64,000 nt of DNA. Source: Candidatus Omnitrophota bacterium (GTDB lineage Bacteria; Omnitrophota; Gorgyraeia; Zapsychrales; Fredricksoniimonadaceae). This document shows, one piece after another, positions 10,446 through 47,360 of this stretch. The position numbers and the translations under genes were made by a program. How positions within the stretch are numbered: the first letter of the stretch is position 1; each line of letters opens with the position of its first letter. The notes beneath the pieces were generated by a model. The model did not search any database. It saw only the letters and a program-made list of their open reading frames with translations, and had not been told where the DNA came from. The DNA lies in assembly GCA_015233335.1 (NCBI GenBank), contig JADFXX010000008.1, positions 11,798-75,797 on the forward strand, given 5' to 3'.

Positions 10446-10546
10446 GTGTCATTGCGATCGTCATTTTCAGTGTCAAAATGTCTTATTGCTTCGCAATCAC
10501 AGGGTTGTGTCATTGCGAGCCCTTTTATTGGGCAAAGCAATCTTTT
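10446..10546. repeat. Palindromic repeat family A copy (GTCATTGCGA.. / ..AAGCAATC, two half-units)
   Basis: The sequence gtgtcattgcgatcg...attgcttcgcaatcac...gtgtcattgcgagccc...gcaaagcaatctttt lies directly upstream of the znuA-like signal peptide. Confidence 0.8.
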
Positions 10547-11428
10547 AGAAATATCGGACTATTAGGCTTGTTTTTTGTGTTTTTCACTGTAACGCCGGCA
10601 CATGCAGATAAGATCAAAGCTGTTGCAACCTTCAGTGTTATCGCTGATATGGTTCGCCATGTTGCCGGGGACTCTATTGATTTGCTCGTTCTGGTCGGCC
10701 CCAATGCCGATGCCCATGAATATGAGCCGGTTCCCGCGGACTCCGTTCACATTTCCAAAGCGGATATTATTTTTGAGAATGGCTTACACTTAGAGCATTG
10801 GCTTGACAAGCTTTATACGGCAAGCGGCACAAAAGCAAAACGCATTATTGTCTCCCGGGGAGTTTCTGTCCGGACCATGGGGGATAATCCTCAGGAATCC
10901 GATCCGCATGCTTGGCAGGATGTCACTAATGTTATCCTTTACGCCCAAAATATTTGTGATGCGCTTGTGGTTCTCGACCCTGTGAACAGGGTGAAATATG
11001 AGGCCCAAACTAAGGATTACGTCAAACAACTGCAAGCATTGGATGGCTGGGTTAAAGCTCAGGTTGCTCTTATCTCCGTAGAAAAGCGTAAATTAGTCAC
11101 TAATCATGATGCTCTAGGGTATTTTGCCCGACGTTATGGTTTTCAAATCATTGGGGCTGTTATACCCTCTGCAACAACTGAAGCGGCAGATCCCTCTGCC
11201 TTGCAAACCGCCCAATTATTAGATATTATTAAAAAGAACAACGTGCGTGCTATATTCTCGGAAAACATGGCTAATCTTAAATTAGCCCAGACCCTTTCAA
11301 AAGAAGCAGGTGTTGCCGTTGGCCCTGAATTATACACAGATGCTTTAGGGGTGATTGGTAGTGATGCCCAGACGTATATTCAAATGATCAAACATAATGT
11401 TAAGATTTTTGTTGAGTATTTAAAATGA
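10478..11428 (+). CDS. znuA: Metal (Zn/Mn) ABC transporter periplasmic substrate-binding protein, ZnuA/TroA family
   Basis: Signal peptide ending TPAHA, then IKAVATFSVIADMVRHVAGD. TroA-fold family protein followed by the ATPase and permease. The start is uncertain: the table ORF begins at 10397 and reads through repeat A; the in-frame ATG at 10478 is preferred here. Confidence 0.75.
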   Translation: MSYCFAITGLCHCEPFYWAKQSFRNIGLLGLFFVFFTVTPAHADKIKAVATFSVIADMVRHVAGDSIDLLVLVGPNADAHEYEPVPADSVHISKADIIFENGLHLEHWLDKLYTASGTKAKRIIVSRGVSVRTMGDNPQESDPHAWQDVTNVILYAQNICDALVVLDPVNRVKYEAQTKDYVKQLQALDGWVKAQVALISVEKRKLVTNHDALGYFARRYGFQIIGAVIPSATTEAADPSALQTAQLLDIIKKNNVRAIFSENMANLKLAQTLSKEAGVAVGPELYTDALGVIGSDAQTYIQMIKHNVKIFVEYLK

Positions 11429-12177
11429 AATTCCCTTATTGTTCACACAGCCATAGTCATCCTGATCCTCACGCGCCGGCACTGGAAATCAAGGGCCTCG
11501 GAGTTTCCTATTTATCAGAGGGAAAATTTGCCCTTAAAGATTTTGATATCAGCATCAAGGCAGGTTCGGCCATGGCCTTGGTTGGGCCCAACGGTGCGGG
11601 GAAATCCACATTATTTAAAGCTATCTGCGGTCTTTTGCCTGTTCGTTGCGGGACTATCCGTGTTTTTGGTTTTCCATTGGGGGCGTGTCACAATAGGGTG
11701 GTTTTTTTGCCCCAGCGCAGTGAGATCGACTGGCAATTTCCTCTGAGTGTCTTGGACTTTGTGACTATGGGGCGGTATGTTTATTTGGGTTGGTTTTTCC
11801 CTTGTACAAAGAAAGATATCAATATTGCCCGTGATGCTTTAAAAGAAATGAACGTGCTGGATTTAGCACATCGACAGATCAGTCAATTGTCCGGAGGCCA
11901 GCAGCAAAGGGTGTTGATCGCTCGCGCCCTGACCCAAAACGCGGATTTGCTTTTACTCGATGAGCCTCTTAATGCGGTTGACGTGACCACCCGCCAGACG
12001 GTGGGGGAGGTTTTACAAAAAATTAAGGCCCAAGGAAAGACAGTTATTGTAGCGACCCATTATTACGATCATGAAGAGGGGCGTTACGATGGGGCTATTT
12101 ATTTAAAAGACGGCAAACAGATCAGTGGTACAAAAGATCAACAAGGTCCTGAAGACTTAGGATGTGATTGCCCATGA
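11425..12177 (+). CDS. znuC: Metal ABC transporter ATP-binding protein
   Basis: Walker A GPNGAGKST, signature LSGGQQQR, Walker B LLLLDEP. His-rich N-terminus SHSHSHPDPH. Confidence 0.9.
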   Translation: MKFPYCSHSHSHPDPHAPALEIKGLGVSYLSEGKFALKDFDISIKAGSAMALVGPNGAGKSTLFKAICGLLPVRCGTIRVFGFPLGACHNRVVFLPQRSEIDWQFPLSVLDFVTMGRYVYLGWFFPCTKKDINIARDALKEMNVLDLAHRQISQLSGGQQQRVLIARALTQNADLLLLDEPLNAVDVTTRQTVGEVLQKIKAQGKTVIVATHYYDHEEGRYDGAIYLKDGKQISGTKDQQGPEDLGCDCP

Positions 12178-13007
12178 TTCATTATCTTACTGACCCATTT
12201 CAATATTTGTTTATCGAACGTGCCATGATCGGTGCCGTTGTCATCGGTATTCTTTGCGCGGCATTGGGCACTTTTATAGTTTTAAGGCGGATGGCTGTCG
12301 TAGGGCATGCGCTGACGCATAGTGCTTTGCCGGGTCTCGTGGTCGCTTTTTTAATGGGGGGGAGTCTTTTTGCCGGGGCATTGACCGCCACCGTATTGAC
12401 GGCCTTTGGCATTGGTTTTCTAGCCCGTGATGAATCTGTCTATGAAGACACCTTAGTCGGCATGATCCCGAATGTCATGTTTGCTTTCGGCATTTTATTG
12501 ATCAGTACGACCAAATCATTCAGGGACCTGTTTTCCATGTTATTCGGCAACATTCTCGGGATCACTGATGGGGACTTACATTTGATCTTGCTTATTGCAG
12601 CGGTTGTGCTTGTTGCCCTGTTTTTATTTTATAAGGAGCTTAAATTATTTTCCGTTGATCCTAATTATGCCAAAACGATCGGCATGCCGGTTAATGCCAT
12701 ACGTTACGGGTTATTACTATTTTTATCTTTAACCGTAGTTGTGGGTATTCAGGCTGTAGGGACTGTTTTAACCAATGCTCTTTTGGTTGTTCCAGTGGCG
12801 TCTGCCCGTCTTTTGACGGACCGCTTGGGGCGCATGATCACATTATCCTGTATTTTTGCGGTATTATCTGCTGTGGGGGGAGTCTATGCTTCCTATTATT
12901 TGGGGACAGCTTCAGGGGCCTCGATCGTGATGTTTTGTTCTTTGATTTTCGCGCTTGCGTGGGTTTTTAAATTTGTTAAGAGCGCGTGTTTGAGGAAGGG
13001 GTCTTAA
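12168..13007 (+). CDS. znuB: Metal ABC transporter permease
   Basis: 279-aa polytopic ABC-3 family permease (ZnuB/TroC-like). Overlaps znuC by 10 nt. Confidence 0.9.
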   Translation: MPMIHYLTDPFQYLFIERAMIGAVVIGILCAALGTFIVLRRMAVVGHALTHSALPGLVVAFLMGGSLFAGALTATVLTAFGIGFLARDESVYEDTLVGMIPNVMFAFGILLISTTKSFRDLFSMLFGNILGITDGDLHLILLIAAVVLVALFLFYKELKLFSVDPNYAKTIGMPVNAIRYGLLLFLSLTVVVGIQAVGTVLTNALLVVPVASARLLTDRLGRMITLSCIFAVLSAVGGVYASYYLGTASGASIVMFCSLIFALAWVFKFVKSACLRKGS

Positions 13008-13576
13008 TGCGTTGGATTTTGATATGCGTGTGTATACTTCTGGCCGCACGACCGGCACCGGCTTGGACCCAAAATCAGCCTAAGCTTGGGGCGGCTCCTT
13101 TGAAATTTTCGAGGAATAAAATTGACTATGAGGTTGTTTCTTTTGAAAGTTTATATTTTGATTATAAACCTCCGGTGGATGTCGAACATCCAGATGGGAA
13201 TATTACCAAAGGGACAAAGGTGCCGATGCCTATTCCTGGTAATATTCAAGCATTGAATGGGAAGAAGGTCGCTATTAAAGGTTTTGTCATACCGTTAGCC
13301 AACTCTGAAGGTCAGAGCATTAAAGAGTTTTTATTTGCGGACCAGTTAGTCAGCTGTTTATTTTGCGCCATGTTAGGATACGATCAATGGATGGTTGGAA
13401 CAGTCGTGGATCCTAAGGGTTTTCAGATTAAAGAAGATGAGTTTGAAGAGCCTATCATCATATTCGGCACTTTAGAGGTCGGTCCAAAATTTGAAGACGG
13501 TGAATTTATCGGCCTATACCGCATTAAAGCAGATGGTTTCGAACCGGGCCGAAAGAAGTTCTTGGGGGTCTTATAG
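13007..13576 (+). CDS. Secreted hypothetical protein downstream of znuB
   Basis: GAGGAAGGGG ribosome-binding site. The ATG overlaps the znuB stop (TAATG). Signal peptide MRWILICVCILLAARPAPAWT. The table ORF starts 21 nt earlier in the same frame. Confidence 0.5.
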   Translation: MRWILICVCILLAARPAPAWTQNQPKLGAAPLKFSRNKIDYEVVSFESLYFDYKPPVDVEHPDGNITKGTKVPMPIPGNIQALNGKKVAIKGFVIPLANSEGQSIKEFLFADQLVSCLFCAMLGYDQWMVGTVVDPKGFQIKEDEFEEPIIIFGTLEVGPKFEDGEFIGLYRIKADGFEPGRKKFLGVL

Positions 13577-13578
13577 CT

Positions 13579-14749: not shown

Positions 14750-14773
14750 TTAGATATAATCAAGAAATTTAAG

Positions 14774-15500: not shown

Positions 15501-15507
15501 GGGGTTT

Positions 15508-21909: not shown

Positions 21910-22806
21910 ATGATACCAAAAGACATTCTTGAAAAAATCCTTCGTATTGATATTACGACCAACCGTCTGGTGACGGATGTGTTTGCCGGGGCGTATCACA
22001 GTGTTTTTAAGGGGCGGGGGATGGAGTTTGATGAGGTGCGCGAGTACCAGCCCGGTGATGATATCCGCTCGATCGACTGGAATGTGACGGCCCGCACGGG
22101 TCAGGCCCATATCAAGAAATATGTGGAAGAGCGGGAATTGACCGTGATGATTTTGGTAGACGCATCGGCGTCGGTGCATTTTGCCTCAACCGGACAGATG
22201 AAGAATAAGCTGGCCGCAGAGATCGCCGCAGTGCTGGCTTTTGCCGCCATTCGCAATAATGATAAAGTCGGGCTTTTGATGTTCACGGATGGCCCGGAGC
22301 TTTTTATCCCCCCTAAAAAGGGAAAAAGTCATGTGCTTAGGGTCATTCGGGAGATTTTGTATTTTAAGCCAAAGGCCAAGGCCACCCATCTGCCCAAGGT
22401 GCTTGAATATCTCTTAAAAGTTCTTCGTCGAAGATCAACGGTTTTTGTCATTTCTGATTTTTTGGATCCCAATTCTGATTATTCAACAATGCGCAAAGCT
22501 TTGCGCATCGCCCATCAGCATCATGACCTGATCGCGGTGACCTTGACTGACCCCAGAGAAATGGACCTGCCGGATTGTTCATTAATAGAACTGACAGATG
22601 CGGAAACAGGCGCCAAAATGCTTGTCGATACGTCGTATGAACCGGTACGCCGCCAATATCATAACAAGGCCTTGGAGCAGATCAAGGCCCGCAGCCGTTT
22701 ATTTGATACGATCGGCATGGACCATATTGATATTTCAACCGATGTGCCTTATAAGAAAGCTTTAGTAAGTTTTTTTGCCCAAAGGCGACATCGCTTGGCA
22801 AGGTGA
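21910..22806 (+). CDS. DUF58 protein (MoxR-associated, vWA-like)
   Basis: EFDEVREYQPGDDIRSIDWNVTAR is the DUF58 signature. Confidence 0.88.
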   Translation: MIPKDILEKILRIDITTNRLVTDVFAGAYHSVFKGRGMEFDEVREYQPGDDIRSIDWNVTARTGQAHIKKYVEERELTVMILVDASASVHFASTGQMKNKLAAEIAAVLAFAAIRNNDKVGLLMFTDGPELFIPPKKGKSHVLRVIREILYFKPKAKATHLPKVLEYLLKVLRRRSTVFVISDFLDPNSDYSTMRKALRIAHQHHDLIAVTLTDPREMDLPDCSLIELTDAETGAKMLVDTSYEPVRRQYHNKALEQIKARSRLFDTIGMDHIDISTDVPYKKALVSFFAQRRHRLAR

Positions 22807-22815
22807 ATGTAAGGC

Positions 22816-22913
22816 ATCATTGCGAGACCTGTTGAATGTGTCATTGCGAGGAGCCGAAGGCGACGTGGCAATCTTTCTAAAAGATTGCTTCGCTTCGCTC
22901 GCAATGACACGAT
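22816..22913. repeat. Palindromic repeat family A copy (full hairpin)
   Basis: catcattgcgag..gtgtcattgcgaggagccgaaggcgacgtggcaatc...gattgcttcgcttcgctcgcaatgacacg is a long imperfect inverted repeat. Confidence 0.85.
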
Positions 22914-22942
22914 GATAAGTTTTGGATTAACATATAAAGTGG

Positions 22943-23482
22943 ATGAATATGAACGATATTAGAGATGTAAAACCTCCTCTTGACCTGCCTGACCTATGGT
23001 GGCTGTGGCTGTTGGCCTTGCTCATTGCGGCCGGAACCGGTATTTATTTCTTCCTTCGCCGTAAAAAATTGCCAAAGGCATCCCTCAAGCCGCAAGCTCC
23101 TGAATTATCAGCTTGGGAAAAAGCCTATAGTCAACTGGAAGCTTTGCGTCAAGACAACTTACTGGACCGCGGTCTTTTTAAAGAGTTTTTTACAAGGGTA
23201 GCGGATATTGCCCGTTATTATATGGAAAACCGGTTCAATATCCGTGCCCCGCATATGTCCAGCGAAGAGTTTTTGTTGTATCTGGGCAAGAGCGGCCATT
23301 TGAATGAAGATCAAAAGGCCTTATTGAAAGATTTTTTAAATTCCTGCGATATGGTTAAATTTGCCAAATACGCCCCGACCATTGCCGAGGCTTGGAAGAA
23401 TTTTGACTGCGCCCGGAAGCTAATCGACGAAACTAAACCTAACGCCGTCCAAGGAACAGAGAATGTTGATGCCCGAGTTTAA
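22943..23482 (+). CDS. DUF4381-like membrane protein (Bat operon)
   Basis: One TM helix (LWWLWLLALLIAAGTGIYFF) followed by a cytoplasmic domain, sitting before the vWA genes. Confidence 0.55.
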   Translation: MNMNDIRDVKPPLDLPDLWWLWLLALLIAAGTGIYFFLRRKKLPKASLKPQAPELSAWEKAYSQLEALRQDNLLDRGLFKEFFTRVADIARYYMENRFNIRAPHMSSEEFLLYLGKSGHLNEDQKALLKDFLNSCDMVKFAKYAPTIAEAWKNFDCARKLIDETKPNAVQGTENVDARV

Positions 23483-24467
23483 AACTCCGTTAGTTCTGCT
23501 GTTAATTCCTGTATTGCTGGCTATCGTGTATTTTGACCACAAACGAAGACAGAGCTCCTCGTTTCGATTTTCTTCGCTGTCTTTGATAGGCCAACTGGAA
23601 TCAACATGGCGCCTGCGTTGGAGCTTTGTACCGTTTCTCTTAAGGGTTTTGGTTTTAGTGTTATTATTAGTGGCATTAGCAGGCCCCCGAAAGCTTTTGG
23701 CAGTCTCTAAGTTAAATACCGAAGGCATTGATATAGTTCTCGCGCTGGATGTGTCCGGCAGCATGTCCGCTGAAGATTATGTGGTCAACGGACAGCGGAT
23801 CAGCCGGCTGGGTATTATTAAAAAAACAGTTGAGGATTTTATAGAGCAGCGCAAAACCGACCGTTTGGGATTGATCGTTTTTGGTTCACAGGCCTATACG
23901 GTGTGCCCTTTGACTCATGATCACGATTGGCTATTGGAAAATCTTCGTCAGGTGCGTTTGGGGGTCATTCAGGACAGTACCGCCATAGGCTCAGGGATCG
24001 CCACGTCATTGCTGCGATTGAAAAATAGCAAAGCTAAATCAAGGGTCATTGTTTTATTGACCGATGGGGTCAACAATTCCGGAAAGATCCTGCCGTTGGA
24101 TGCCGCTAAAATGGCCCAGGCTTTGGGGATCAAGATCTATACGATCGCTGCCGGCACCAAGGGCATCGTTCCGGTTCCGGTGACGGATGCTTTTGGCAAT
24201 CACTATTATGAGAACGCGCAGTTCGATCTGGATGAAGACAGCCTCAAGAAAATAGCGGATATGACCGGCGGTCAGTATTTTAGGGCGGCTGATACTGATT
24301 CGCTGCGTCAGATCTATCATCAGATCGATATGCTCGAAAAGACTAAGAGCGAGGAAAAAGGCTATAAGCTCTATGAGCCCACGTTCGGTTTTTTTGTGAT
24401 TGCGGCCCTGCTTTTATTGGCCTTGGAAATCATTTTAACCAATAGTTTGTTTTTGAAGATACCATGA
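23463..24467 (+). CDS. batA: vWA domain protein BatA-like
   Basis: N-terminal TM helices, then a vWA/MIDAS domain (DIVLALDVSGSM...LTDGVNN) and a C-terminal TM helix. Confidence 0.85.
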   Translation: MLMPEFKTPLVLLLIPVLLAIVYFDHKRRQSSSFRFSSLSLIGQLESTWRLRWSFVPFLLRVLVLVLLLVALAGPRKLLAVSKLNTEGIDIVLALDVSGSMSAEDYVVNGQRISRLGIIKKTVEDFIEQRKTDRLGLIVFGSQAYTVCPLTHDHDWLLENLRQVRLGVIQDSTAIGSGIATSLLRLKNSKAKSRVIVLLTDGVNNSGKILPLDAAKMAQALGIKIYTIAAGTKGIVPVPVTDAFGNHYYENAQFDLDEDSLKKIADMTGGQYFRAADTDSLRQIYHQIDMLEKTKSEEKGYKLYEPTFGFFVIAALLLLALEIILTNSLFLKIP

Positions 24468-25477: not shown

Positions 25478-25624
25478 AAGGGAATGGAAGAATATAGTTT
25501 TTCACGGCCGGCGCATGACCCCCATCCCCACAAGCTCGGCGCTTCGGGGGTATAGTTATAAGCACCCCCTGTGCGCCTGTGGGGTAGCTGGCCTTAGAAA
25601 AACTATATTCTTCCATTCCCTTTT
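25476..25624. repeat. 28-bp perfect inverted repeat (AAAAGGGAATGGAAGAATATAGTTTTTC) flanking a 93-bp GC-rich structured insert; candidate MITE or structured RNA
   Basis: Arms 25476-25503 and 25597-25624 are exact reverse complements. The insert has internal stems CCCCACA/TGTGGGG and GGGGG...CCCCC. Confidence 0.7.
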
Positions 25625-25634
25625 AGCTACATTC

Positions 25635-26567: not shown

Positions 26568-26568
26568 T

Positions 26569-29500
26569 ATGCAAGTGTCATTGCGAGCTCTCGTACCAGT
26601 GTCATTGCGAGCGAAGCGAAGCAATCTTTTCCTTTGTCTTTTGATGCTTCTGTCTTCAACCGGCACCTTAAAAGCTGACACTGTCAGCTTTGAGGCGAGT
26701 GTCAATTCTTCCAGAATTTCTTTAAGCGAAGTCCTGCAGTTGAACTTGACCGTGACCGGACTTAAGGACAATATTGACCCCATCAGCCTTCCTGTTCTTG
26801 ACGGTTTTTCAGCCAAATATCTTGGACCTTCGACCCGGGTGTCGATCGTGAATGGTGATTATCACAGCGAACGGTCTTTTGTTTATGACCTGTTTCCCAA
26901 CAAAGTAGGCCATTTCCAAATTCCGCCTATCAGCGCCACCATTGCAGGGCAGACCTATGTGACCAAACCTATTGATATTGAGGTCGTCGCGGACTCCGCT
27001 GGGGCTCAGGCACCTGCACCCCAACAAGCCCAAGATCAAGCCCCCAGCATCCAGAGCCTAAAAGACAAGATTTTGATCCTAGTTTCTTTAGAGAAAGAAG
27101 AAGTTTATTTGAATGAGCGTGTGCCGTTGAGCGTCAAACTTCTTGTTAACGATGTGCCCATACGGGACATTCAATTCCCTCAATTTGACAAGCAAGGCTT
27201 TGCGGTTGATGATTTTCAAAAGCCTCAGCAATATTCGCAGGTGCTCAACGGGGTCAAATATGATGCAGTGGAATTTAAGTCATATATTTATCCTACCCAT
27301 TTAGGGGATGTTCCCATCGGGCCTTTTCAAATTGCCGGTAATGTTGTTTATAAAAACGGCAATAACAATCCTTTTAATCAGGACATGAATCCTTTCGGAG
27401 GCGGTCTTTTTAAAGATTTTTTTGATTCCTATGCCACCCGTCCTGTGACCGTGACTTCCCGGCCGTTACCTATGCATGTTAGGGCCTTGCCGCAGGAAGG
27501 CCGTCCGCGGGATTTTTCCGGGGCTGTCGGCCAGTTTGATTTTCAGGCGAGTGTTTCTCCGTTACAGGTCAAGGCCGGAGATCCGATAACCTTAAAGATG
27601 TCTCTCAAAGGCAACGGCAATTTTAAGAGTGTGACAATGCCTGTCTTTCAAGGCGCTGGCTTTAAAACGTATGAGCCTAAGATAAAGGACCAAGCAGATG
27701 AAAAAACAGCAGAGGAAGTGATCATTCCCACCTCAGCCCAAGTCACCCAAGTGCCTGCCTTGCATTTTTCTTATTTTGATACATCCCTTAAAGATTACAA
27801 AACGATCACTCAGGGTCCTTTTGCCATTCAAGTCATGCCTAACGCTCCTGATGAAGGGTTTAAAGCAGTTGGTTTTTCTGATGTCAGCCGGGAGCCGGCA
27901 ACCTTGCATATAGACCAGTTTTCTTTTGGGAAAATGTTCCATACGATCCGCAAGGGTTTAAGCAAGCTATGCAAATCAATAGGTTTTTGGCTGACACTAG
28001 GATTGATTATTGTAGGAGGAGGGTCTTATTTTTTGTGGCGGCGTTTTCAGGAACGCCTTGAAAATGATCCCGCGTTTGCCCGCAGGCTTAAGGCCTATAC
28101 GGAAGCTAAACAAACCTTACGTATGGCGCAGGGTTATATTTCGACCGGTAAGTCTAAGGATTTCTACACGCTTTTATCAAGGGCCATCCGCGAATATCTG
28201 GCCAATAAATGGCATCAATCGCCGGCAAGTTTAAGTATTGAGGAAATACTAAAACAGCTTAAATCCGCAGGGATTGATGAAACTCACATCGAAGGGGCAA
28301 AAAATATCCTAACCACAAGTGATCTGGTCTGTTTTGCGGGCGCAAACCGCGATGCCAGCCAGATGCAATCCGACCTTTCTTTGACCCAAAACCTGATCAA
28401 TCATTTGCATATCTCATTGCGAGCCCCGAAGGGGCGAAGCAATCTTTTATCTCTATTTTTCTCCATCAGTCTTCTTTTAACTGCCACCGCTTGGGCAGAT
28501 CTGCCTTGGGTCAAACAGCAGAGTTCAGCGTTTTCCGGTGAGGGGGTCTGGTTCGGTGCCGCGATGTCCGCTGACGGGAGTCGTTTGATACTGTTGGATG
28601 TGTATAATGGTTTGTATATCTCAACTAATGGAGGAGCCAGTTGGAGTCAGTATAATCCCAGTACATATCATTATACATATTGGCGTGCTGTTCCTGCTAT
28701 GTCTAGCGACGGTAGTCATGTGATGGCGGGGAGTTATCAATATCATGGAAGATTATATCTTTCGGTCAATGGTGGTGTGATTTGGAGTGAAACCCGGCCA
28801 GCAGGTGATAATGATCTAAATTGGAGTGTGACTGCCATGTCGGGTGACGCAAGTCATTTGCTGGCTGGAGTAGGTAGTTTGTCAGGACGTTTATATCTAT
28901 CGAGCGATGGGGGAGCTCACTGGGTTGAGATCCAGCCTGATGGGAATAACGATGAAAATTGGAATACGGCCGCCATCTCCAGTGATGGAAGTCATTTGAT
29001 CGTAGGTGAATATAACAATGGCACGACTAATCGGGGACGTTTGTTTTTTTCGAAAGATGGAGGTGCTACTTGGTCTGAAACTCAGCCGGCAGGTGCTACG
29101 GAACAATATTGGAAGTTTGTAACCACTTCCAGTGATGGCAGTCATTTTATGGCTGGAATTAATGGTGGGCAAATATATACCGGTGTTTTGTCCGGTGGGA
29201 TCATCTCATGGACCGGAGGTGTCAGTAGGGGTTGGTATGTTGGCGCCAGTTCCAGTGACGAGAGTTATTTGCTGGCGGGAGTATATGTTGGACGTCTGTA
29301 TTATTCAACCAATGGGACTGCCGGGACTCCGACTTGGACTGAAACTCGACCCGCAGGGGCTAATAATTATGTATGGAATGCAGGATCTATAAGTAGTGAC
29401 GGGACTCATATGATGGCAGGGATTCAGGGGGGCGAGGTGTTTATTTCGACAAATGGGGCAACGAGTTGGAGTGAAACTAAGCCTCAAATAGATCAAAATT

Positions 29501-30510: not shown

Positions 30511-30655
30511 GTTGTCATATCGTCATTCGCGATGAATTTTAAGATGTCTTAAGGTCCTTCGCTTTGCTCAGGACGACGAAAATAAAGGTGACGGGCGTAT
30601 TTATTATTAAGACGTCTTAAGGTCCTTCGCTTTGCTCAGGACGACGGGTACAGGA
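30511..30655. repeat. Repeat family B: two tandem copies of AAGA(T/C)GTCTTAAGGTCCTTCGCTTTGCTCAGGACGAC plus a CGTCATTCGCGATGA half-site
   Basis: Direct repeat at about 30541-30587 and 30609-30655, in the convergent intergenic region between the batD/BNR ORF and lpxB. Confidence 0.8.
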
Positions 30656-30662
30656 TTACGGA

Positions 30663-31844
30663 TTAATATGCCAATTCGTTGAGGACTATATGTGCCGCGC
30701 GTAGGCTGGCTCCGGGCTCGCCTAAGGATGTTTTAACTGCGGCTAATTCATTAACGATTTGTTTATTATTTAAAGCATTTTCTACAGCACGGGCGATTGT
30801 CTCGGGCTTGGCATCATTTTGGATCAGTTCTTCCGCCACTTTTTTTCCGGCTACAATATTGACCAAACCAATATAAGGAATTTTGATCACAGCTTTTGCT
30901 ATTGCATAGGTCAGCCAAGAGGTCTTATAAATGATGACCATGGGTTTAAGGAGCAATGCGGTTTCTAAAGTGGCGGTGCCTGAGGCCACCATGGCGGCAT
31001 CCATGGCATTGATACCGTCATAAGTTGTTCCGTCGTAGATTTTTATAGGAAGGTCTTTTAATGCAGTGTCATTGCGAGTCCCGAAGGGGCGAAGCAATCT
31101 TTTAAGTGACCGTCCCATTAGCACAGATTCAATAAATTTTAACGGGATGGTCGATGCTTTAAGCAAAACGAACTGGCGGTCATGGTCTTGTTCGAAAAGC
31201 TTTTGGGCCGCTTCCAGCATACAGGGCAGATGGCGTTCGACTTCTTTAGCGCGCGAACCGGGCATAAGTCCTATGGTCGTTTTACCCTCGGATAAGCCAA
31301 TGTTTCTTAAAACCTCTGACGGTGTTTTGCTGACTACGATTTCATCAACTAATGGATGTCCGACATAATCGACCTTCATGCCGTATTTGGTGTAAGTTTC
31401 CTGTTCAAAAGGGAATAACACGATCATGCGGTTAACCAATTCTTTGATCTTTTTGACCCGTGCCTCTTTCCAAGCCCATACCTGCGGGGATATATAGTAG
31501 ATGATCTTGATGCCGCGTTTTTTTATTTCACGGGCCAAGCGCAAATTAAAACCCGGATAATCGACGAGGATGACGGCGTCAGGGTGGGTGGTATCGATTT
31601 GGACTAACGCCTGATCAAAAACTTTTTTGATGCGGCCTAAATTTTTAAGCACTTCGACAAAGCCGATAACTGCAAGTTCGGTGATATCCGTAAAACATTC
31701 AACTCCGGCTTGGCGCATATGCGCACCGCCGATCCCGCTTAAACGCAGGGATGGCTGAAGCTGTTTTAAAGCGCGAGCCAGACCGGCCGCGCGCATATCA
31801 CCGGACGCTTCACCAGCTATGACCATTAAATGATAATTTTTCAT
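30663..31844 (-). CDS. lpxB: Lipid-A-disaccharide synthase
   Basis: N-terminus MKNYHLMVIAGEASGD, YYISPQVWAW, and conserved VASGTATLE. AAGGGTG ribosome-binding site upstream of the ATG at 31844. The table ORF extends to 31874. Confidence 0.92.
   Translation of the reverse strand: MKNYHLMVIAGEASGDMRAAGLARALKQLQPSLRLSGIGGAHMRQAGVECFTDITELAVIGFVEVLKNLGRIKKVFDQALVQIDTTHPDAVILVDYPGFNLRLAREIKKRGIKIIYYISPQVWAWKEARVKKIKELVNRMIVLFPFEQETYTKYGMKVDYVGHPLVDEIVVSKTPSEVLRNIGLSEGKTTIGLMPGSRAKEVERHLPCMLEAAQKLFEQDHDRQFVLLKASTIPLKFIESVLMGRSLKRLLRPFGTRNDTALKDLPIKIYDGTTYDGINAMDAAMVASGTATLETALLLKPMVIIYKTSWLTYAIAKAVIKIPYIGLVNIVAGKKVAEELIQNDAKPETIARAVENALNNKQIVNELAAVKTSLGEPGASLRAAHIVLNELAY
31066..31103 (-). repeat. 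Palindromic repeat family A copy inserted in-frame within lpxB coding sequence
   Basis: gtcattgcgagtcccgaaggggcgaagcaatctttta. On the lpxB strand it encodes KRLLRPFGTRNDT immediately N-terminal to the conserved KIYDGTTYD...VASGTATLE block. Confidence 0.8.
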
Positions 31845-31887
31845 AAATGAGACACCCTTACGGATTCGAAGCAATAGGGGATATCAA

Positions 31888-32859: not shown

Positions 32860-32905
32860 ACACCATGCTAAATTACGTTTTCTTTAAATTAGGGGTAACA
32901 GAGAG

Positions 32906-34711: not shown

Positions 34712-34902
34712 AATCATCCCAAAATTTAAAATTTTATTGCAAATATCAGAGTCTTTGTTATAGTAAATGTTCAATTTAACCCAAATGGCCGCCTTTGAGG
34801 GCATGAGGCTTAAATCAAAGGCAGGTTAAAACTAAAAGTCTCGCTTTGACCTGGGGTTTGGACCATCTGCCAGCGAGATACAGAAGAGAGGAAGTAAAAT
34901 TT

Positions 34903-35640
34903 ATGGCAACAGAATTGATCAAGCAGTTACTGGAAGCAGGTGTTCACTTCGGTCATCAAAGCCGCCGCTGGAATCCCAAAATGAAAAGATTTATTTTTGG
35001 GGAACGCGGCGGCATTTATATTATTGACCTTGAAAAAACTGTGGAGAGGCTTAGTGCCGCGCGCGATGCCATCCGTGATATCGCGGCCCGCGGAGGCAAG
35101 ATCCTTTTTGTGGGCACTAAAAAACAGGCCCAGCAGGTCATCGAAGAAGAAGCCATCCGCTGCGGCATGTTTTATGTCAAAAACCGCTGGATGGGCGGGC
35201 TATTGACTAATCTTGAAACCGTCAAAAAATCAGTCCGAAAATTAATCGATATTGAAAAGATGGAAACTAACGGCACGGTAGGGCGTCTGACTAAGAAAGA
35301 AGCTTCACTGTTGATGAAAGAAAAAGACCGTTTGATCCGTGATCTGGGTGGTATTCGCGATATGGCCGTTCCTCCTCAGGCAATTTTTATTGTGGATACC
35401 AAGAAAGAAGAGATTGCCGTAGCAGAAGCCAATCGTCTGGGAATTCCGGTCATAGGCTTGATCGATACGAATTCAGATCCGGAGTTGATCCAATATCCTA
35501 TTCCGGGCAATGATGACGCCGTCAAGGCTATTAAATTTATTACCGGCCTTATTGTTGACAGCATCATTGAGGGCCGTCAGGAATTTTTGGCGGGAAAGAA
35601 AGTACAAAAAGAAGCTCAAGTGCAGGAAGTAGCGGCTTAA
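34903..35640 (+). CDS. rpsB: 30S ribosomal protein S2
   Basis: MATELIKQLLEAGVHFGHQSRRWNPKM. AGAGGAAG ribosome-binding site. The table ORF starts at an upstream TTG at 34846. Confidence 0.95.
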   Translation: MATELIKQLLEAGVHFGHQSRRWNPKMKRFIFGERGGIYIIDLEKTVERLSAARDAIRDIAARGGKILFVGTKKQAQQVIEEEAIRCGMFYVKNRWMGGLLTNLETVKKSVRKLIDIEKMETNGTVGRLTKKEASLLMKEKDRLIRDLGGIRDMAVPPQAIFIVDTKKEEIAVAEANRLGIPVIGLIDTNSDPELIQYPIPGNDDAVKAIKFITGLIVDSIIEGRQEFLAGKKVQKEAQVQEVAA

Positions 35641-35695
35641 TTGACATTGAACGAAACGTTCAATGTCATCCTGAGGCAACGGCCGAGGGAACTTA
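35641..35695. repeat. Repeat family B variant with perfect 11-bp hairpin (GACATTGAACG-aaa-CGTTCAATGTC) followed by ATCCTGAGGC
   Basis: In the rpsB-tsf intergenic region. No T-run, so it is not a classical terminator. Confidence 0.6.
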
Positions 35696-35726
35696 ATTTA
35701 GAATTATAGAATTGGAGAAATAAGAA

Positions 35727-36254
35727 ATGATGGCAACGACAGCGGATGATATTAAACGCCTTCGGGAAGAAACGTCCTGCGGTGTTATTGATTGCAAAAA
35801 AGCGCTCGAAGAAGCTCAGGGCGACTTTAATAAAGCCAAAGAATTTTTGCGTAAACGGGGATTAGAGATGGCCGCTAAAAAAAGCGACCGCCTGGCTCGC
35901 GAAGGCAGGGTTGAGTCCTATATCCATAACGGCAATAAAATCGGAGTAGTAGTTGAAGTTAACTGTGAAACCGATTTTGTGGCCCGAAGTGAAGATTTTT
36001 GCAAATTTACGAAAGATGTGGCATTGCATATCGCCGCATTAAGTCCCAAGTATATAAGAAAAGAGGATGTCCCGGCTGATATATTGGCTAAGGAATCGGA
36101 CAAAGAGGCTTTTTATAAAGCCCATTGTTTGTTAGCTCAGGCGTATGTCAAGGACCCCGGTAAAAATGTACAGGACTTGTTAAATGAGCTGATCGCGAAG
36201 ATAGGCGAAAATATTATGGTAGGGCGTTTTGTGCGTTATAAAGTAGGGGAATAA
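35727..36254 (+). CDS. tsf: Elongation factor Ts (short form)
   Basis: 175 aa with [34 protein letters not shown] (UBA-like N-terminus) and [16 protein letters not shown]. Confidence 0.9.
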
Positions 36255-37569: not shown

Positions 37570-37643
37570 GACCGACTAGCTCACCCTGGTAGAGCACTAC
37601 ACTTTTAATGTAGGGGTACCGCGTTCGAGTCGCGGGTCGGTCA
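37570..37643 (+). tRNA. tRNA-Lys (anticodon UUU)
   Basis: Acceptor stem GACCGAC/GTCGGTC, anticodon loop CTTTTAA, T-arm GTTCGAGTC. No encoded CCA. Starts immediately after the frr stop. Confidence 0.75.
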
Positions 37644-37678
37644 TTTTTTTAAAACCGCCTTGGATCTTTTTAAAAGAT

Positions 37679-37759
37679 GGGCGGGTGGCGGAATGGCAGA
37701 CGCGCATGCCTTAGGAGCATGTGGGGAAACCCGTGGAGGTTCAAGTCCTCTCCCGCCCA
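37679..37759 (+). tRNA. tRNA-Leu (anticodon UAG), type II with long variable arm
   Basis: Acceptor stem GGGCGGG/CCCGCCC, anticodon stem CATGC/GCATG with loop CTTAGGA, variable arm TGGGGAAACCCGT, T-arm GGTTCAAGTCC. No encoded CCA. Confidence 0.7.
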
Positions 37760-37787
37760 CTAGTGTTCTTTAAATGTTTCATGGGAT

Positions 37788-37863
37788 GCGGCGGTAATTC
37801 AGTTGGTAGAATGCCACCTTGCCAAGGTGGATGTCATGGGTTCGAGCCCCATTCGCCGCTCCA
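37788..37863 (+). tRNA. tRNA-Gly (anticodon GCC)
   Basis: Acceptor stem GCGGCGG/TCGCCGC, anticodon stem CCACC/GGTGG with loop TTGCCAA, T-arm GGTTCGAGCCC, discriminator U plus encoded CCA. Confidence 0.75.
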
Positions 37864-44938: not shown

Positions 44939-44943
44939 TTAGA

Positions 44944-45915: not shown

Positions 45916-45927
45916 GAGGAGGGGCAA

Positions 45928-47250
45928 ATGGCTGTCAATTTTGGTTTTGATGTGGATGCGGCAGTAAAGAAATTGGTCATGACCGATAATGTCAAGGAAA
46001 AAGAGATCTTAGCCAAGGAAATTCAGGCCAAAGCTAAGGACAAAGGAATATTTTTAGCCTCCATTCAGGATGTTTATATGGCGCGAGGGAAAGGTAAAGG
46101 TAAGAATTTCACCGTACCTGCCATGAATTTACGTTCATTAACTTATTATTTAGCCCGTGCCATATTTCGTACAGCCAAACGTCTTAATGCGGGAGCTTTT
46201 ATTTTTGAAATTGCCAAGTCTGAAATGGGTTACACCAATCAGCCGCCGGTGGAATATTCTGCTGTTATTCTGGCAGCAGCTATTAAAGAAGGCTACAGCG
46301 GCCCGGTGTTTGTGCAGGCAGACCATTGTCAGATCAAAGCCACTGCTTATTTTGAAAATAAGGCCAAAGAAGTTGCTGGTCTGAAGGATTTAGTTGCGGA
46401 TTGTGTTGCCGCCGGTTTCTATAATATTGATGTGGATTCCTCAACCACCGTAGTATTAGAACGCCCGACCTTAAATGAGCAGCAGAGGGATAATTTTGAA
46501 ATTTGCGCTGAAATGACTAAATTTATCCGGGAGATACAGCCCAAAGGTCTTGAGATATCTGTTGGTGGGGAGATCGGTGAAGTCGGCCACAAAAACAGTA
46601 CGGTCGAAGAATTAACGGCATTCATGGATGGTTACAATAGTTCGTTACCCAAAGGCTTGACGGGTTTAAGCAAGCTTTCCGTACAGACCGGCACCTCACA
46701 CGGCGGGGTGGTATTACCCGACGGCACTATTGCCAGCGTGAAGGTGGATTTTGATACTTTAAAGGCTCTTTCCAAAGCAGGTCAGCAGAAATATGGATTA
46801 GGCGGCGCGGTACAGCATGGAGCTTCCACCTTGCCGGATGAAGCCTTTAACAAATTCCCGGAAATTAATACCATAGAGATCCACTTGGCGACCAATTTTC
46901 AAAACAAGATCTTAGACAGTAAATTATTCCCTAAAGATCTGTATGCCAAAATGGTTGAGTGGAGCAAGATCAACTGTGCCGGTGAACGCAAACCTAAGGA
47001 CAGCGAAGAGCAATTTATATACAAAGCCCGTAAACGCGCATTAGGGCAATTTAAAAAGGATATTTACGGCCTGCCTGAAAATATCAAAGATGGTATAGCC
47101 GCGGAAATTGAAAAGAATTTTGAATTTTTATTTAAGCAGCTCAATGTCCAGGACACCAAAGATTTTGTAACTTCTATTATTAAACCCGTGCATGCAACGA
47201 TCGGTTTGCGCCATGCACAGGCCCATTTAGACGGAGAAGGGGACGATTAA
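45928..47250 (+). CDS. fba: Fructose-bisphosphate aldolase, class II (long ~440 aa form)
   Basis: QADHC, VGGEIGEVGHKNSTVEE and QTGTSHGG correspond to class II FBA catalytic motifs. Confidence 0.75.
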   Translation: MAVNFGFDVDAAVKKLVMTDNVKEKEILAKEIQAKAKDKGIFLASIQDVYMARGKGKGKNFTVPAMNLRSLTYYLARAIFRTAKRLNAGAFIFEIAKSEMGYTNQPPVEYSAVILAAAIKEGYSGPVFVQADHCQIKATAYFENKAKEVAGLKDLVADCVAAGFYNIDVDSSTTVVLERPTLNEQQRDNFEICAEMTKFIREIQPKGLEISVGGEIGEVGHKNSTVEELTAFMDGYNSSLPKGLTGLSKLSVQTGTSHGGVVLPDGTIASVKVDFDTLKALSKAGQQKYGLGGAVQHGASTLPDEAFNKFPEINTIEIHLATNFQNKILDSKLFPKDLYAKMVEWSKINCAGERKPKDSEEQFIYKARKRALGQFKKDIYGLPENIKDGIAAEIEKNFEFLFKQLNVQDTKDFVTSIIKPVHATIGLRHAQAHLDGEGDD

Positions 47251-47257
47251 ACAATTG

Positions 47258-47360
47258 TCGTCATTCTGAGGCGAAGGTCCTCAAACCGGACACTCACAGT
47301 TGTTCGCCGAAGAATCTTAATGAGCATTAAGCTTCGTTGCTCTGCTCAGGACGACAAATA
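47258..47360. repeat. Repeat family B copy (CGTCATTCTGAGGCGAAGGTCCTC...GCTTCGTTGCTCTGCTCAGGACGAC)
   Basis: Imperfect inverted repeat in the fba-ilvC intergenic region. It shares GTCGTCCTGAGCA.AGC.AAG with the 30511-30655 copies. Confidence 0.8.

Follow-up and report, generated by a model that had tools for sequence, protein, structure and literature searches.

The closest described relatives of the repeats analysed here are the CGTC-tagged REPs, a superfamily introduced by Di Nocera, De Gregorio and Rocco (2013, BMC Genomics 14:522; PMC3733652). According to that paper, intragenic copies are present, no dedicated transposase was found, and the ends of R. conorii RPEs are placed in the same superfamily, with RPE-4 and RPE-6 corresponding to CGTC units. 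The peptides given there for the CGTC-1 family are VIPAKAGI, SFPRKRES, CHSRESGNP and DSRFRGND; they are translations of GTCATTCCCGCGAAAGCGGGAATC, which we also found in Omnitrophica relatives. Translational fusions arise from about half of the RPEs in some families (PMC10969869).

We studied a stretch of 64,000 nucleotides (the window) from a Candidatus Omnitrophica MAG, in which the initial annotation had recognized hairpin repeats at eight loci and had likened them to REP/RPE-type selfish elements. All eight loci could be read directly and the repeats are real: about 15 units with one common architecture lie within 37 kb. The comparison was also right and can be made precise, as the units fit the definition of CGTC-tagged REPs in PMC3733652. 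In all probability, the window repeats are CGTC/TGTC-tagged REPs and so belong to an established superfamily of selfish DNA hairpins that are not autonomous. The features are as follows.

10447..10500, + strand: degenerate unit, head TGTCATTGCGAT with inverted partial arm ATTGCTTCGCAATCAC, located at, or within, the znuA 5' end
10508..10546, + strand: complete A-type unit TGTC ATTGC GA GCCC TTTTATT GGGC AAA GCAAT CTTTTA, translated as ..CHCEPFYWAKQSFRN.. directly before the ZnuA h-region
22815..22826, + strand: orphan head box (c)ATCATTGCGAG in the DUF58-DUF4381 spacer, 24 nt upstream of the next unit
22839..22876, + strand: complete A-type unit, inner stem GGAGCC-GAA-GGCGAC, left half of an inverted doublet
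22880..22909, - strand: complete A-type unit GTCATTGCGAGCGAAGCGAAGCAATC, right half of the doublet, 100% identical to 26599-26630
26576..26599, + strand: orphan head box and 13-nt spacer, within batD codons 3-10
26600..26630, + strand: complete A-type unit within batD codons 11-19 (VSLRAKRSN)
28412..28448, + strand: complete A-type unit whose tag is TCTC and whose inner stem is GCCCC-GAA-GGGGC, replacing the last codons and stop of batD
30520..30545, + strand: degenerate B-like unit CGTCATTCGCGATGAATTTTAAG, from direct reading, in the spacer on which the BNR ORF and lpxB converge
30550..30578, - strand: complete B-type unit CGTC GTCCT GA GC AAA GC GA AGGAC CTTAAG
30618..30646, - strand: another complete B-type unit, repeating the previous one directly at a distance of 68 nt
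31067..31104, + strand: complete A-type unit within lpxB (gene on the - strand), antisense reading ..SLKRLLRPFGTRNDT..
35643-35669: perfect 11-bp hairpin adjoining the next unit
35664..35698, + strand: degenerate B-type unit TGTC ATCCT GA GGC AAC GGCC GA GGGAA CTTAAT in the rpsB-tsf spacer
47259..47319, + strand: B-type unit whose inner hairpin is large, CGTC ATTCT GA GGCGAA..TTCGCC GA AGAAT CTTAAT, upstream of ilvC
47322..47357, - strand: degenerate B-type unit (TGTC GTCCT GA GC AGA GC ...), inverted partner of the previous one

The motif GTCATTGCGAG, with at most one mismatch, occurs 10 times against 1.02 expected, and none of 100 shuffles reached 10. The repeat search pairs 28414 with 31069 (36 nt, 97%) and, in inverted orientation, 22879-22910 with 26599-26630 (32 nt, 100%), and it also recovers the B units 30530/30598/47308. 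The layout varies: loci 22816, 26577 and 10448 open with an orphan head box followed 24 nt downstream by a complete unit, inverted doublets are found at 22840/22908 and 47260/47355, the segment 30511-30655 consists of one degenerate plus unit and two minus units, and the copy at 28413 has TCTC as its tag. Further convincing copies were not found in the rest of the window. An isolated head with one mismatch lies within a gene at 62070. The minus-strand ORFs described earlier as pseudo-peptides of the repeat indeed read KRLLRFARNDTGTRARNDT and DCFASLAMTLVRELAMT.

Some of these features would also be expected if the repeats were relics or end repeats of an ordinary MITE or IS whose movement depends on a DDE transposase, since the units begin with TGT, the head boxes recur every ~24 nt like multiple transposase-binding sites, and the copy at 31068 is flanked by a direct repeat of 7-8 nt. 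However, the units are just 25-40 nt long and target-site duplication is not general: none was seen in 190 single units, and the mean of 4.65, against 4.17 in the control, exceeds it on account of tandem arrays. No transposase gene recurs beside the units, the sole "transposase" under a match being a Mu-like MuA gene with a weak internal match. We therefore regard such an origin as extremely improbable.

With regard to anatomy, the common frame proposed earlier, beginning GTC-N6-GAGC, is here refined to (C/T)GTC - S5 - GA - inner hairpin - GA(A) - S5' - C-TTWW. In order, a unit comprises the unpaired tag (C/T)GTC, an outer stem of 5 bp, an internal loop of tandem G·A, an inner stem whose cap is GAA or AAA, the complementary arm and, last, the tail C-TT(T/A). 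The outer stem is ATTGC/GCAAT in the A type, and GTCCT/AGGAC, ATTCT/AGAAT or ATCCT in the B type. Folding predicts the same two-stem structure for all copies, although the predicted energies are modest (z from +0.2 to -2.8), which counts against our explanation. In the 2.1 Mb of other loci that were fetched, cognate head-tail pairing far exceeds non-cognate pairing (ATTCC 32 vs 0.9, ATTCT 15 vs 0.8, ATCCC 16 vs 0.9, GTCCC 8 vs 0.5). The inner pairs, counted only where they had been left out of unit selection, covary (GC 7, CG 6, AU 2, UA 1), and the observed score was reached in none of 500 shuffles. The base before GTC in the tag is T in 95 and C in 78 cases (n=181), the stem opens with the pairs A-T and T-A, and the tail is C, then C/T, then C/A. 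The apical loops have the form C-GNA-G (CGAAGC 28, CGCAGC 10, CGTAGC 8, CGGAGC 7), which matches the DNA mini-hairpin GCGNAGC/GCGNNAGC (PMC13037366) and recurs on RAYT-associated enterobacterial REPs (PMC2817692).

Hairpins of this kind might instead be functional RNAs that selection maintains site by site, acting as terminators, mRNA stabilisers or translational control elements, with the coding copies being incidental. In agreement with this, the units lie mostly between tandem or convergent genes, as is also stated in PMC3733652, C-TTTT directly follows the hairpin in the window genome, the copy at 35664 adjoins a perfect hairpin after rpsB, and in IMG/VR contigs units are found between phage structural genes. 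On the other hand, there is no Rfam match even at E<=5, no unit scored as terminator-like while terminator-like sites are as frequent as in shuffles (16 vs 15.4), and orientation relative to flanking tandem genes shows no preference (31 co vs 22 anti in genomes, 42 vs 39 in viral contigs). Moreover, close relatives are empty at orthologous sites, one sense-oriented copy sits in mid-operon two codons into batD, and GNA triloops typify DNA and not RNA hairpins (PMC13037366). Selection for an RNA function is thus an unlikely explanation.

The copies vary in presence between relatives. Over ~21 kb, the syntenic relative L001 has a single weak unit, located in the ABC-GFO_IDH spacer, L246 has none, and neither has a unit at a position orthologous to a window copy. 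At batC|batD, DUF58|DUF4381 and the lpxB loop, different subfamilies occupy the same junctions in different genomes. The repeat core was found in many phyla as well as in phage contigs. Beside the units no neighbouring gene recurs, and a phmmer search of the 2.1 Mb, translated in six frames, with the E. coli RAYT as query gave no match. The cores are nearly identical across phyla, unlike GTAG REPs that co-evolve with their RAYT, so a dedicated-transposase model does not explain them. A strictly lagging-strand single-stranded DNA mechanism predicts a bias with GC skew, and the absence of such a bias in the genome loci (50:40) counts against it.

The copies in batD and lpxB are in-frame parts of their genes, and so is that in znuA on its predicted start. 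The batD ATG directly follows the batC stop and is kept in the REP-free L001 and L246 (TGGTAAT-ATG and TGGTGAG-ATG, respectively), where the protein starts MKRFILCFF.. and MKKFILCFF.., compared with MQ[VSLRALVPVSLRAKRSN]LFLCLL.. in the window; head and unit thus form a 51-nt in-frame insertion after codon 2. Four syntenic relatives have an ordinary BatD signal peptide, and its ancestral KR is missing in the window outside the insertion. ZnuA orthologues are mostly 303 aa long with ordinary starts such as MSKLTKLLDVGKVMLLALFIMSLALTPAHA followed by DK. In the window protein the apparent n-region is replaced by repeat-derived ..CHCEPFYWAKQSFRN, and starts downstream of the repeat would leave just MFFVFFTVTPAHA; the repeat cluster would thus have replaced the n-region of the predicted signal peptide. 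The claim that repeat translation supplies signal-peptide n-regions is therefore supported by orthologue comparison for BatD and ZnuA, two of the three cases put forward. In the third, the unit at 28412..28448 reads SLRAPKGRSN and is followed by a signal-peptide-like start of the BNR segment, which is fused in frame to BatD, is absent in four syntenic relatives and has an N-terminally truncated fragment as its closest representative. This copy, which now precedes the BNR segment, may have taken out the batD stop codon, although the junction, lying at repeats in a MAG, could be a mis-join.

These cases raise the question of whether the repeat is reused as a selected 5' module that gives a start codon and a positive n-region to exported proteins, as the initial annotation had suggested. 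Three of the eight window loci precede a hydrophobic h-region and an AXA cleavage site, BatD and BNR share a frame with a charge of +3 (SLRAKRSN/SLRAPKGRSN), GTG and TTG codons occur in frame within the unit, and the loss of the KR in BatD points the same way. However, among hundreds of units in the other 2.1 Mb, only ~4 more are close to an ORF start with a hydrophobic stretch behind it, and in at least one of these cases (L141) the unit is followed by an ordinary Met start. Of 120 ZnuA homologues retrieved, 60 N-termini were inspected and only the window's own is repeat-derived; the ordinary BatD signal peptides of the relatives argue in the same direction, and PMC3733652 warns that many N-terminal REPs are probably extragenic. 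The lpxB copy is an in-frame insertion relative to L001 and lies in a surface loop, a recurrent insertion site with extra residues in 45 of 120 homologues. All three sense frames and both subfamilies occur there, which points to tolerated passengers and away from selection of a particular peptide. Selection as a 5' module is accordingly very unlikely; the signal-peptide link is overstated as a general rule.

We propose instead that the top strand of these selfish hairpins, most plausibly in single-stranded DNA, folds back into a stem that tandem G·A mismatches interrupt and a mini-hairpin of GNA or GNNA caps; the unpaired tag (C/T)GTC flanks this stem on the 5' side and a short tail on the 3' side. 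Single-stranded DNA would be the active form and an enzyme acting in trans would mobilise it. Within a genome, copies would multiply singly, in inverted doublets, and in arrays of tandem units or of heads; they would turn over rapidly between related genomes, and pile up at gene boundaries and at the few coding positions that tolerate in-frame insertion. SLRAKRSN and AKQSFRN happen to be positively charged, which enables the translated repeat to act as the n-region of a signal peptide. The parallel with GTAG REPs and RAYT tentatively suggests a Y1/HUH-type nuclease as the most likely candidate enzyme. We know of no dedicated enzyme for the CGTC superfamily.

It is useful to compare these units with the known systems. 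The mini-hairpins d(GCGNAGC)/d(GCGNNAGC) of Hirao and co-workers (reviewed in PMC13037366) resemble most unit apices, which are exactly C-GNA-G or C-GAAA-G with G-C closure and a variable N, but they are structural motifs at phage and plasmid origins and not a dispersed repeat family. GTAG REPs and REPINs, served by RAYT (TnpA-REP), are likewise short imperfect palindromes with a conserved unpaired tag at the 5' foot, a GCGNAGC apex (in Citrobacter, Cronobacter and Klebsiella; PMC2817692), inverted doublets, intergenic positions between tandem and convergent genes, and no target-site duplication. The tag, however, is YGTC instead of GT[AG]G, a flanking RAYT gene ("REPtron") is not known for YGTC units and was not found beside them here, and GTAG REPs are species-specific. 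Rickettsia RPEs are also palindromic and in frame within functional genes, with encoded peptides tolerated in surface regions; yet classical RPEs are ~100-150 bp long and confined to Rickettsia, whereas the window units are singlets or doublets of 25-60 nt in a free-living or episymbiotic candidate phylum and include synteny-verified insertions in signal peptides. The likeness is greatest with the CGTC-1 to CGTC-4 REPs of PMC3733652, which share the unpaired 5' tag CGTC (often TGTC or CCTC), A-T and T-A as the first two stem pairs, a short loop, a 3-nt tail, frequent inverted dimers, several subfamilies per genome, intragenic in-frame copies and the lack of an associated transposase gene, and occur in Bradyrhizobium, Micavibrio, Sphingomonads and Bacteroidetes. 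Compared with that description, the window units have a 5-bp outer stem with tandem G·A mismatches instead of a perfect stem of 8-9 bp, an apical loop of 3 nt (GAA/AAA) or a larger inner hairpin, and the tail CTT instead of CCA; head arrays are not described in the sections of PMC3733652 drawn on here. Beyond the five phyla that PMC3733652 names for CGTC REPs, the units extend to Omnitrophica, Chloroflexota, Cyanobacteria, Patescibacteria, Zixibacteria, Planctomycetota, Bacillota and phage contigs.

All eight repeat loci were read, and the claim of the initial annotation that they form a real family proved correct. The 11-mer GTCATTGCGAG occurs 10 times at up to one mismatch as against 1.02 expected, a count that none of 100 dinucleotide-preserving shuffles reached, and a repeat search independently paired the copies at 28414 and 31069 (36 nt, 97% identity), found a perfect inverted pair of 32 nt (22879-22910 and 26599-26630) and recovered the B units 30530, 30598 and 47308 together. 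About 15 units are packed into 37 kb of the window, at the following places.

Repeat loci of the window and their gene context (Pfam)
10.4 kb: in or before znuA
22.8 kb: between the DUF58 gene and the DUF4381-like gene, bat operon
26.6 kb: two codons into batD
28.4 kb: junction of batD and the BNR/sortilin-like segment
30.5 kb: convergent spacer before lpxB
31.07 kb: inside lpxB
35.7 kb: between rpsB and tsf
47.3 kb: upstream of ilvC

Units by tag (window positions; minus strand where marked)
10508, 22839, 22909 (minus), 26576, 26600, 31067, 35664, 47357 (minus): TGTC-tagged
30578 (minus), 30646 (minus), 47259, 30520: CGTC-tagged
28412: TCTC-tagged

Aligned by eye and with a script, the units share the architecture (C/T)GTC - S5 - GA - inner stem/loop - GA(A) - S5' - C - TT(T/A)(T/A). 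Subfamily A has ATTGC/GCAAT as its outer stem S5/S5', subfamily B has GTCCT/AGGAC, ATTCT/AGAAT or ATCCT, and the inner stems are GC/GC, GCCC/GGGC, GCCCC/GGGGC, GGAGCC/GGCGAC or GGCGAA/TTCGCC. The stem starts with A-T and T-A in the A units and in units 47259 and 35664, with G-C and T-A in the B units 30550 and 30618, and a length of 9 bp results only with the tandem G·A mismatches included (5 + 2 + at least 2). Loops are of 3 nt (GAA or AAA), of 7 nt or replaced by a nested hairpin, and the tail is CTT. The proposed hairpin was borne out when the copies were folded as single-stranded DNA, i.e. every unit gave the same two-stem structure, with modest energies (z from +0.2 to -2.8). An orphan head, that is a lone 5' box, stands 24 nt 5' of a complete unit at three loci (22816, 26577 and 10448), and inverted doublets are found at two (22839/22909 and 47259/47357). 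The minus-strand ORFs described earlier as pseudo-peptides do indeed read KRLLRFARNDTGTRARNDT and DCFASLAMT.

IMG/VR contigs and one genome per species were scanned with the pattern GTCATTGCGAG-N3-30-GAAGCAATC, at least 120 loci being covered in each set. Among the matches listed for the IMG/VR contigs (181 units), GTC is preceded by T in 95, by C in 78, by G in 4 and by A in 4, and the segment between the arms is mostly C-GNA-GC (CGAAGC 28, CGCAGC 10, CGTAGC 8, CGGAGC 7); longer versions have extra G-C pairs and G·A tandems, e.g. GAGC-GAA-GCGAC. C-GNA-G or C-GNNA-G closed by G-C pairs is the 'mini-hairpin DNA' motif GCGNAGC/GCGNNAGC (PMC13037366), and the same apex is present in RAYT-associated enterobacterial REPs, e.g. 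GTAGGCCcGgTAAGCGaaGCGCC.. (PMC2817692). The fetched loci had been selected for the ATTGC subfamily alone, the remaining head types being found within them, and there the heads are followed by their cognate tails far more often than by non-cognate ones: ATTCC 32 vs 0.9, ATTCT 15 vs 0.8, ATCCC 16 vs 0.9, ATCGC 10 vs 2.1 and GTCCC 8 vs 0.5. Altogether 22 distinct units of 27 nt were aligned without gaps, and the three inner pairs, which had played no role in selection, were followed in them. Here 76% of cells are paired, as compared to 54% after shuffling and 21-33% with the partner slid, pair 10-19 changes between GC (7), CG (6), AU (2) and UA (1), and the covariation score was matched by none of 500 shuffles. 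Head arrays with the 24-nt spacing were found repeatedly in phage contigs as well, and the inverted doublets of the fetched loci have a modal spacer of 22-26 nt, with the tags pointing outward.

We conclude that the structure is constrained and that the acting form is most likely a single-stranded DNA hairpin of the top strand; this strand is favoured because the GNA apex is asymmetric and its complement would carry TNC. The head arrays and the GNA mini-hairpin apices constrain any model of the mechanism. The other way to read such a hairpin, namely that the units act as RNA elements, is argued against by several points. Firstly, neither orientation of the units is preferred where the flanking genes are co-directional, and those inside genes lie in either orientation. 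Secondly, Rfam does not match them: at the gathering threshold it returned three tRNAs alone and no unit, and the region 22700-31200 gave nothing at E<=5. Thirdly, they are not terminator-like, in as much as no unit is among the 16 terminator-like sites of 22000-36000, a number equal to the shuffle expectation. A hammerhead-like reading (GUC...CUGA...GAA) was discarded on inspection, stem I being absent and the UGA of the CUGAUGA box missing. As a separate observation, three tRNA genes stand in series at 37570-37860, 3' of frr.

LpxB and ZnuA of the window are identical to proteins of a Candidatus Omnitrophica MAG. Four loci of related Omnitrophica (L001, L003, L246 and L247) show synteny to 21-36 kb of the window, in the order MoxR, DUF58, DUF4381, BatA, BatB, TPR, BatD, convergent LpxB, GFO/IDH, ABC, rpsB, tsf, pyrH, frr. 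In about 21 kb, L246 is without a convincing unit and L001 shows a single weak one, whose site is not related to those of the window copies; the units of L003 are confined to lpxB, and L247 carries doublets at other junctions. L246 and L003 have tight batC/batD and DUF58/DUF4381 junctions, and the second of these is tight in L001, too; in the window and in L247 they hold REPs of different subfamilies. The units are thus polymorphic for presence and absence, and the same sites have been colonised repeatedly. The batC/batD junction of L001 and L247 also holds an unrelated MITE-like palindrome, an insertion of about 200-250 nt (L247 13080-13320, L001 12830-13070) with long terminal inverted repeats (ATGGATGAATAGCTATTATGTGTGAGGCACAATAAGG...) and with the end of batC (..AAGGA(A/T)TGGTAA) seemingly duplicated on its far side, i.e. 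a second kind of mobile element at this junction. In L003 the batC/batD spacer contains an 84-nt G+C-rich insertion at 12930-13030 (GGGTGACCGAGGGTGGGGCATCCCCAGCGAGCGCAGGCTTTGGCGAGCACGCTCTGGAG).

The syntenic loci make it possible to compare filled and empty sites at batD. The window and L001 (both TGG TAA T ATG) as well as L246 (TGG TGA G ATG) have a conserved ATG straight after the batC stop codon, and BatD of the relatives starts with MKRFILCFFMLMAASGIARA/DA, with MKKFILCFFML.. or, in L003, with MKNIILCFLML... The window protein starts with MQ-[VSLRALVPVSLRAKRSN]-LFLCLLMLLSSTGTLKA/DT, where the bracket marks 51 nt composed of one head box and one unit, so that batD has gained 17 codons after codon 2. 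Since the ATG is conserved and nothing but MMLLSSTGTLKA would remain if translation began 3' of the repeat, the repeat lies in frame inside the coding sequence, and the sole positive charges of the BatD n-region are now encoded by it. A REP can therefore sit inside a signal peptide, 3' of a conserved start codon. The TPR protein encoded upstream of batD (ORF 25464-26567) has a long, low-complexity tail rich in Q, K, D and N (26067-26449), which is encoded by degenerate 9-nt periodic repeats.

In znuA the repeat is very probably in frame and coding, too. Most of 120 ZnuA homologues have 303 aa, and the 60 N-termini inspected are ordinary signal peptides, typically MSKLTKLLDVGKVMLLALFIMSLALTPAHA/DKIKAIATIS; the window protein reads ..CHCEPFYWAKQSFRN-IGLLGLFFVFFTVTPAHA/DKIKAVATFS, the ancestral n-region being gone. 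Possible starts are TTG 10505 (inside the unit), ATG 10397 and ATG 10412 (the NCBI choice, 338 aa), while the downstream starts TTG 10568 and GTG 10577 would shorten the h-region. The ZnuA locus of a further relative (L244) is not syntenic with the window.

The third proposed case is the BNR segment. BatD of the relatives ends in ..HLERFL* or ..FFEKSL* and abuts lpxB; in the window it continues as ..NHLH-ISLRAPKGRSN-LLSLFFSISLLLTATAWA/DLPW.. without a stop, giving an ORF of 1313 aa, and separate BNR starts are possible at the in-frame TTG codons 28405 and 28417. None of the four syntenic relatives has the 2.1-kb BNR/sortilin-like gene (28413-30646), which has REPs on both flanks; its closest representative is a truncated fragment, the others being diverse multi-repeat proteins. 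Its presence may be due to a REP-flanked insertion or to a mis-join that arose at the repeats during MAG assembly.

The unit within lpxB is in frame and inside the coding sequence. The window LpxB reads ..IESVL-MGRSLKRLLRPFGTRNDTA-LKDLPIKIYDG.. where L001 has ..IESIL-F-LKNLPIKIYDG.., and E. coli LpxB (5w8s) is likewise without the inserted segment. The gene is about 18 codons longer, and Pfam LpxB is still matched at 4e-99 over residues 17-373. When 120 homologues were aligned (53-100% identical to the window protein), the loop had the short form in 75 and at least 4 extra residues in 45, about 35 of the latter being recognisable REP translations.

REP translations in the LpxB loop (type, peptide, count)
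A-type frame 1, VIARSEATKQS: 10
A-type frame 2, CHCEERSDEAIS: 9
A-type frame 3, VSLRAKRSN: 3
Antisense, RLLRxxxRND: 2
CGTC-1 type, CHSRESGNP or SFPRKRES: 14

Units at this site show a strong sense bias, and arrays occur as well, i.e. an inverted doublet in homologue P0030 and a tandem array of five units with a 39-nt period in P0022. The insertion points in the DNA lie a few codons apart in different genomes, so that these are recurrent events in a permissive loop rather than a single inherited insertion. The loop, filled by different subfamilies, frames and arrays in more than one third of the 120 homologues, provides a natural system for studying the rate and tolerance of insertion. Other short insertions recur close by (P0007, P0044, P0064, P0106): three homologues have ..NAKRPNCFDIYNG.. 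and one has ..APRLRSGQG.., both probably being translated from additional repeat families.

The idea that the repeat supplies the n-region of signal peptides thus stands for BatD (conserved ATG, 51-nt insertion) and ZnuA (n-region replaced), and the relatives' BatD and the inspected ZnuA N-termini are ordinary signal peptides, but the link is not general. All fetched loci were searched for units read through by an ORF with at least 150 further codons, lying no more than 45 codons from the earliest start and followed by a hydrophobic 12-mer. The qualifying rows were three from the window (the znuA and batD sites, batD twice, for head box and unit) and only four others, at least one of which (L141, ..VIASKAKQSLF-MRKMLMVILFVML..) has an ordinary Met start 3' of the unit. 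The suggestion of an exapted 5' module is overstated in view of these few other cases and of LpxB, where units are read in every frame, which speaks against one peptide being selected. The BatD and ZnuA cases look like tolerated insertions at very tight junctions, one frame of which happens to be basic, and not like a selected module. The most useful novelties are the synteny-verified signal-peptide insertion, the LpxB hot-spot and the head arrays.

The units also have consequences for annotation. They generate spurious small ORFs (RLLRFARND, DCFASLAMT) and extended or shifted start calls, as in ZnuA, annotated with 338 aa vs 303 aa in most orthologues, and they are a possible source of mis-joins in MAG assemblies. 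Another element of the window, a nested imperfect palindrome of about 400 nt in the spacer that separates ilvC from the following gene (48365-48948; arms 48485-48523/48664-48702, 97%; 48594-48645/48748-48799, 88%; 48497-48586/48807-48896, 73%), has a 76-78% identical copy in the DUF58-MoxR spacer of L001 (17441-17650). It probably represents a MITE family common to these Omnitrophica and unrelated to the CGTC units.

The host range is broad. Among the matches listed are Bradyrhizobium, Sphingomonas, Micavibrio and Bacteroidetes, in agreement with PMC3733652, and, beyond the five phyla named there, Omnitrophica, Chloroflexota, Cyanobacteria, Patescibacteria, Zixibacteria, Planctomycetota, Bacillota (with the complete genome of Sporomusa malonica), Helicobacter rodentium and others; attributions based on MAGs call for some caution. 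In IMG/VR, units are present in contigs that are genuinely of phage origin and carry genes for portal, capsid and terminase. Matches in deposited phage genomes were restricted to prophage records of the Helicobacter canis type and to phage contigs from human faeces. One such record, a Helicobacter sp. prophage (L249, BK070154.1), is Mu-like (Gam, AAA ATPase) and has a 90%-identical match to the REP core at 3001-3029, within the gene of an 839-aa Mu-like transposase; this weak match may be an intragenic unit or due to chance, and the transposase is not a candidate for the mobilising enzyme.

The search for such an enzyme gave negative results. Pfam analysis of 94 unit-flanking ORFs in at least 120 genome loci yielded 175 families, none recurrent and none of them Y1_Tnp; clustering of ORFs near the units found nothing recurrent in the genome loci and phage core genes only (portal, capsid, terminase) in IMG/VR; and phmmer with E. 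coli RAYT, the transposase of GTAG REPs, gave no match in 2.1 Mb including the window and the loci with 10 kb on either side. A suspected association with small multi-copy genes (GIY-YIG, the four-helix-bundle 23S-IVS protein, GxxExxY) or with RAYT found no support in clustering, Pfam or phmmer. Target-site duplications beyond the shuffled control were absent in 190 single units. As regards strands, the plus strand of the window is G-rich throughout and carries most of its single units, a small sample. In the IMG/VR contigs (L004-L123) single units prefer the C-rich strand (97:39, p ~7e-7), a bias that relatedness among the phages may cause; the 12 nt 5' of the tag are pyrimidine-rich there.

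We infer that the units would be propagated in trans by an enzyme. Our best guess, offered tentatively and as somewhat less than an even bet, is a Y1/HUH-type nuclease, on account of the analogy with the GTAG REP/RAYT system, the common GCGNAGC apex and the lack of target-site duplications. For TnpA-Y1 subclasses 2.1 and 2.3 no REP is known (PMC6006769). A simple RAYT-like model of mobilisation is, even so, difficult to reconcile with a core that is near-identical across phyla, with the lack of a linked gene and with the finding that units of the genome loci prefer neither strand with respect to GC skew (50:40, 90 single units). It is also conceivable, if rather unlikely, that there is no dedicated transposase and that the units are a pan-bacterial, phage-carried ssDNA mini-hairpin copied by general replication or repair, or by a widely shared unrecognised enzyme. 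Hairpin-primed or template-switch synthesis at stalled forks would then be the candidate processes, and the footprints might be the near-identical core in more than 10 phyla, the lack of target-site duplications and of a linked gene, the orphan-head arrays with their 24-nt period, and the re-colonised gene junctions and LpxB loop. Were this so, REP-rich lineages such as Omnitrophica would steadily gain peptides inserted in frame, fused genes and new n-regions for signal peptides.

A literature search with the raw sequence and the pseudo-peptides returned primer coincidences at most. Di Nocera, De Gregorio and Rocco divided REPs into GTAG-tagged and CGTC-tagged superfamilies in 2013 (PMC3733652). 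According to that paper, CGTC repeats, reported for five phyla, have a terminal CGTC, frequently TGTC or CCTC, stems of 8-9 bp that nearly always start with A-T then T-A, loops of 4-5 nt (variable in Bradyrhizobium CGTC-1) and 3-nt tails, mainly CCA; inverted dimers prevail, a genome holds several families, some copies are intragenic, no dedicated transposase gene is adjacent, and the ends of the R. conorii RPE (Rickettsia palindromic element) are included. The paper considers many N-terminal REPs probably extragenic and leaves their coding status open in general, R. conorii proteins with an N-terminal RPE-1 being expressed in vivo. The window units resemble this superfamily, as there described, in the CGTC/TGTC tag (one TCTC), high copy number, dispersal, inverted dimers and the absence of a dedicated transposase gene beside the units of the fetched loci. 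The doublet layout, with tags outward, also matches the dimer peptides SFPRKRES...DSRFRGND. The CGTC-1 peptides VIPAKAGI, SFPRKRES, CHSRESGNP and DSRFRGND (Additional file 3 of PMC3733652) are translations of GTCATTCCCGCGAAAGCGGGAATC, which is present in L247, in a further relative (L002) and in many LpxB homologues; perfect 8-bp stems (ATTCCCGC/GCGGGAAT) occur in L247 and L002, and tails outside the window genome are mostly CCA or CTC. The differences from the published description are the 5-bp outer stem with G·A tandems in place of a perfect 8-9 bp stem, the 3-nt loop and the CTT tail.

In contrast to GTAG REPs and REPINs, the tag is YGTC throughout the window and IMG/VR and not GT[AG]G, even though the GCGNAGC apex and the absence of target-site duplications are common to both. 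With RPE the units share in-frame palindromic insertion that leaves genes intact (lpxB, batD), but they measure 25-60 nt and reside in Candidatus Omnitrophica, whereas RPE-1 to RPE-10 have consensus lengths of 100-150 bp and are confined to Rickettsia; the common part is the CGTC-tagged core only. The initial annotation had rightly recognised the kind as REP/RPE-type, since the units fit the CGTC-tagged superfamily, which according to PMC3733652 embraces the R. conorii RPE ends. A candidate phylum known almost only from MAGs and many uncultured phage contigs thereby join this superfamily. The repeats belong to the CGTC-tagged REPs and, because stem, loop and tail differ from the four published families, we file them as a new member, distinguished by a new phylum, a variant stem and carriage by phages.
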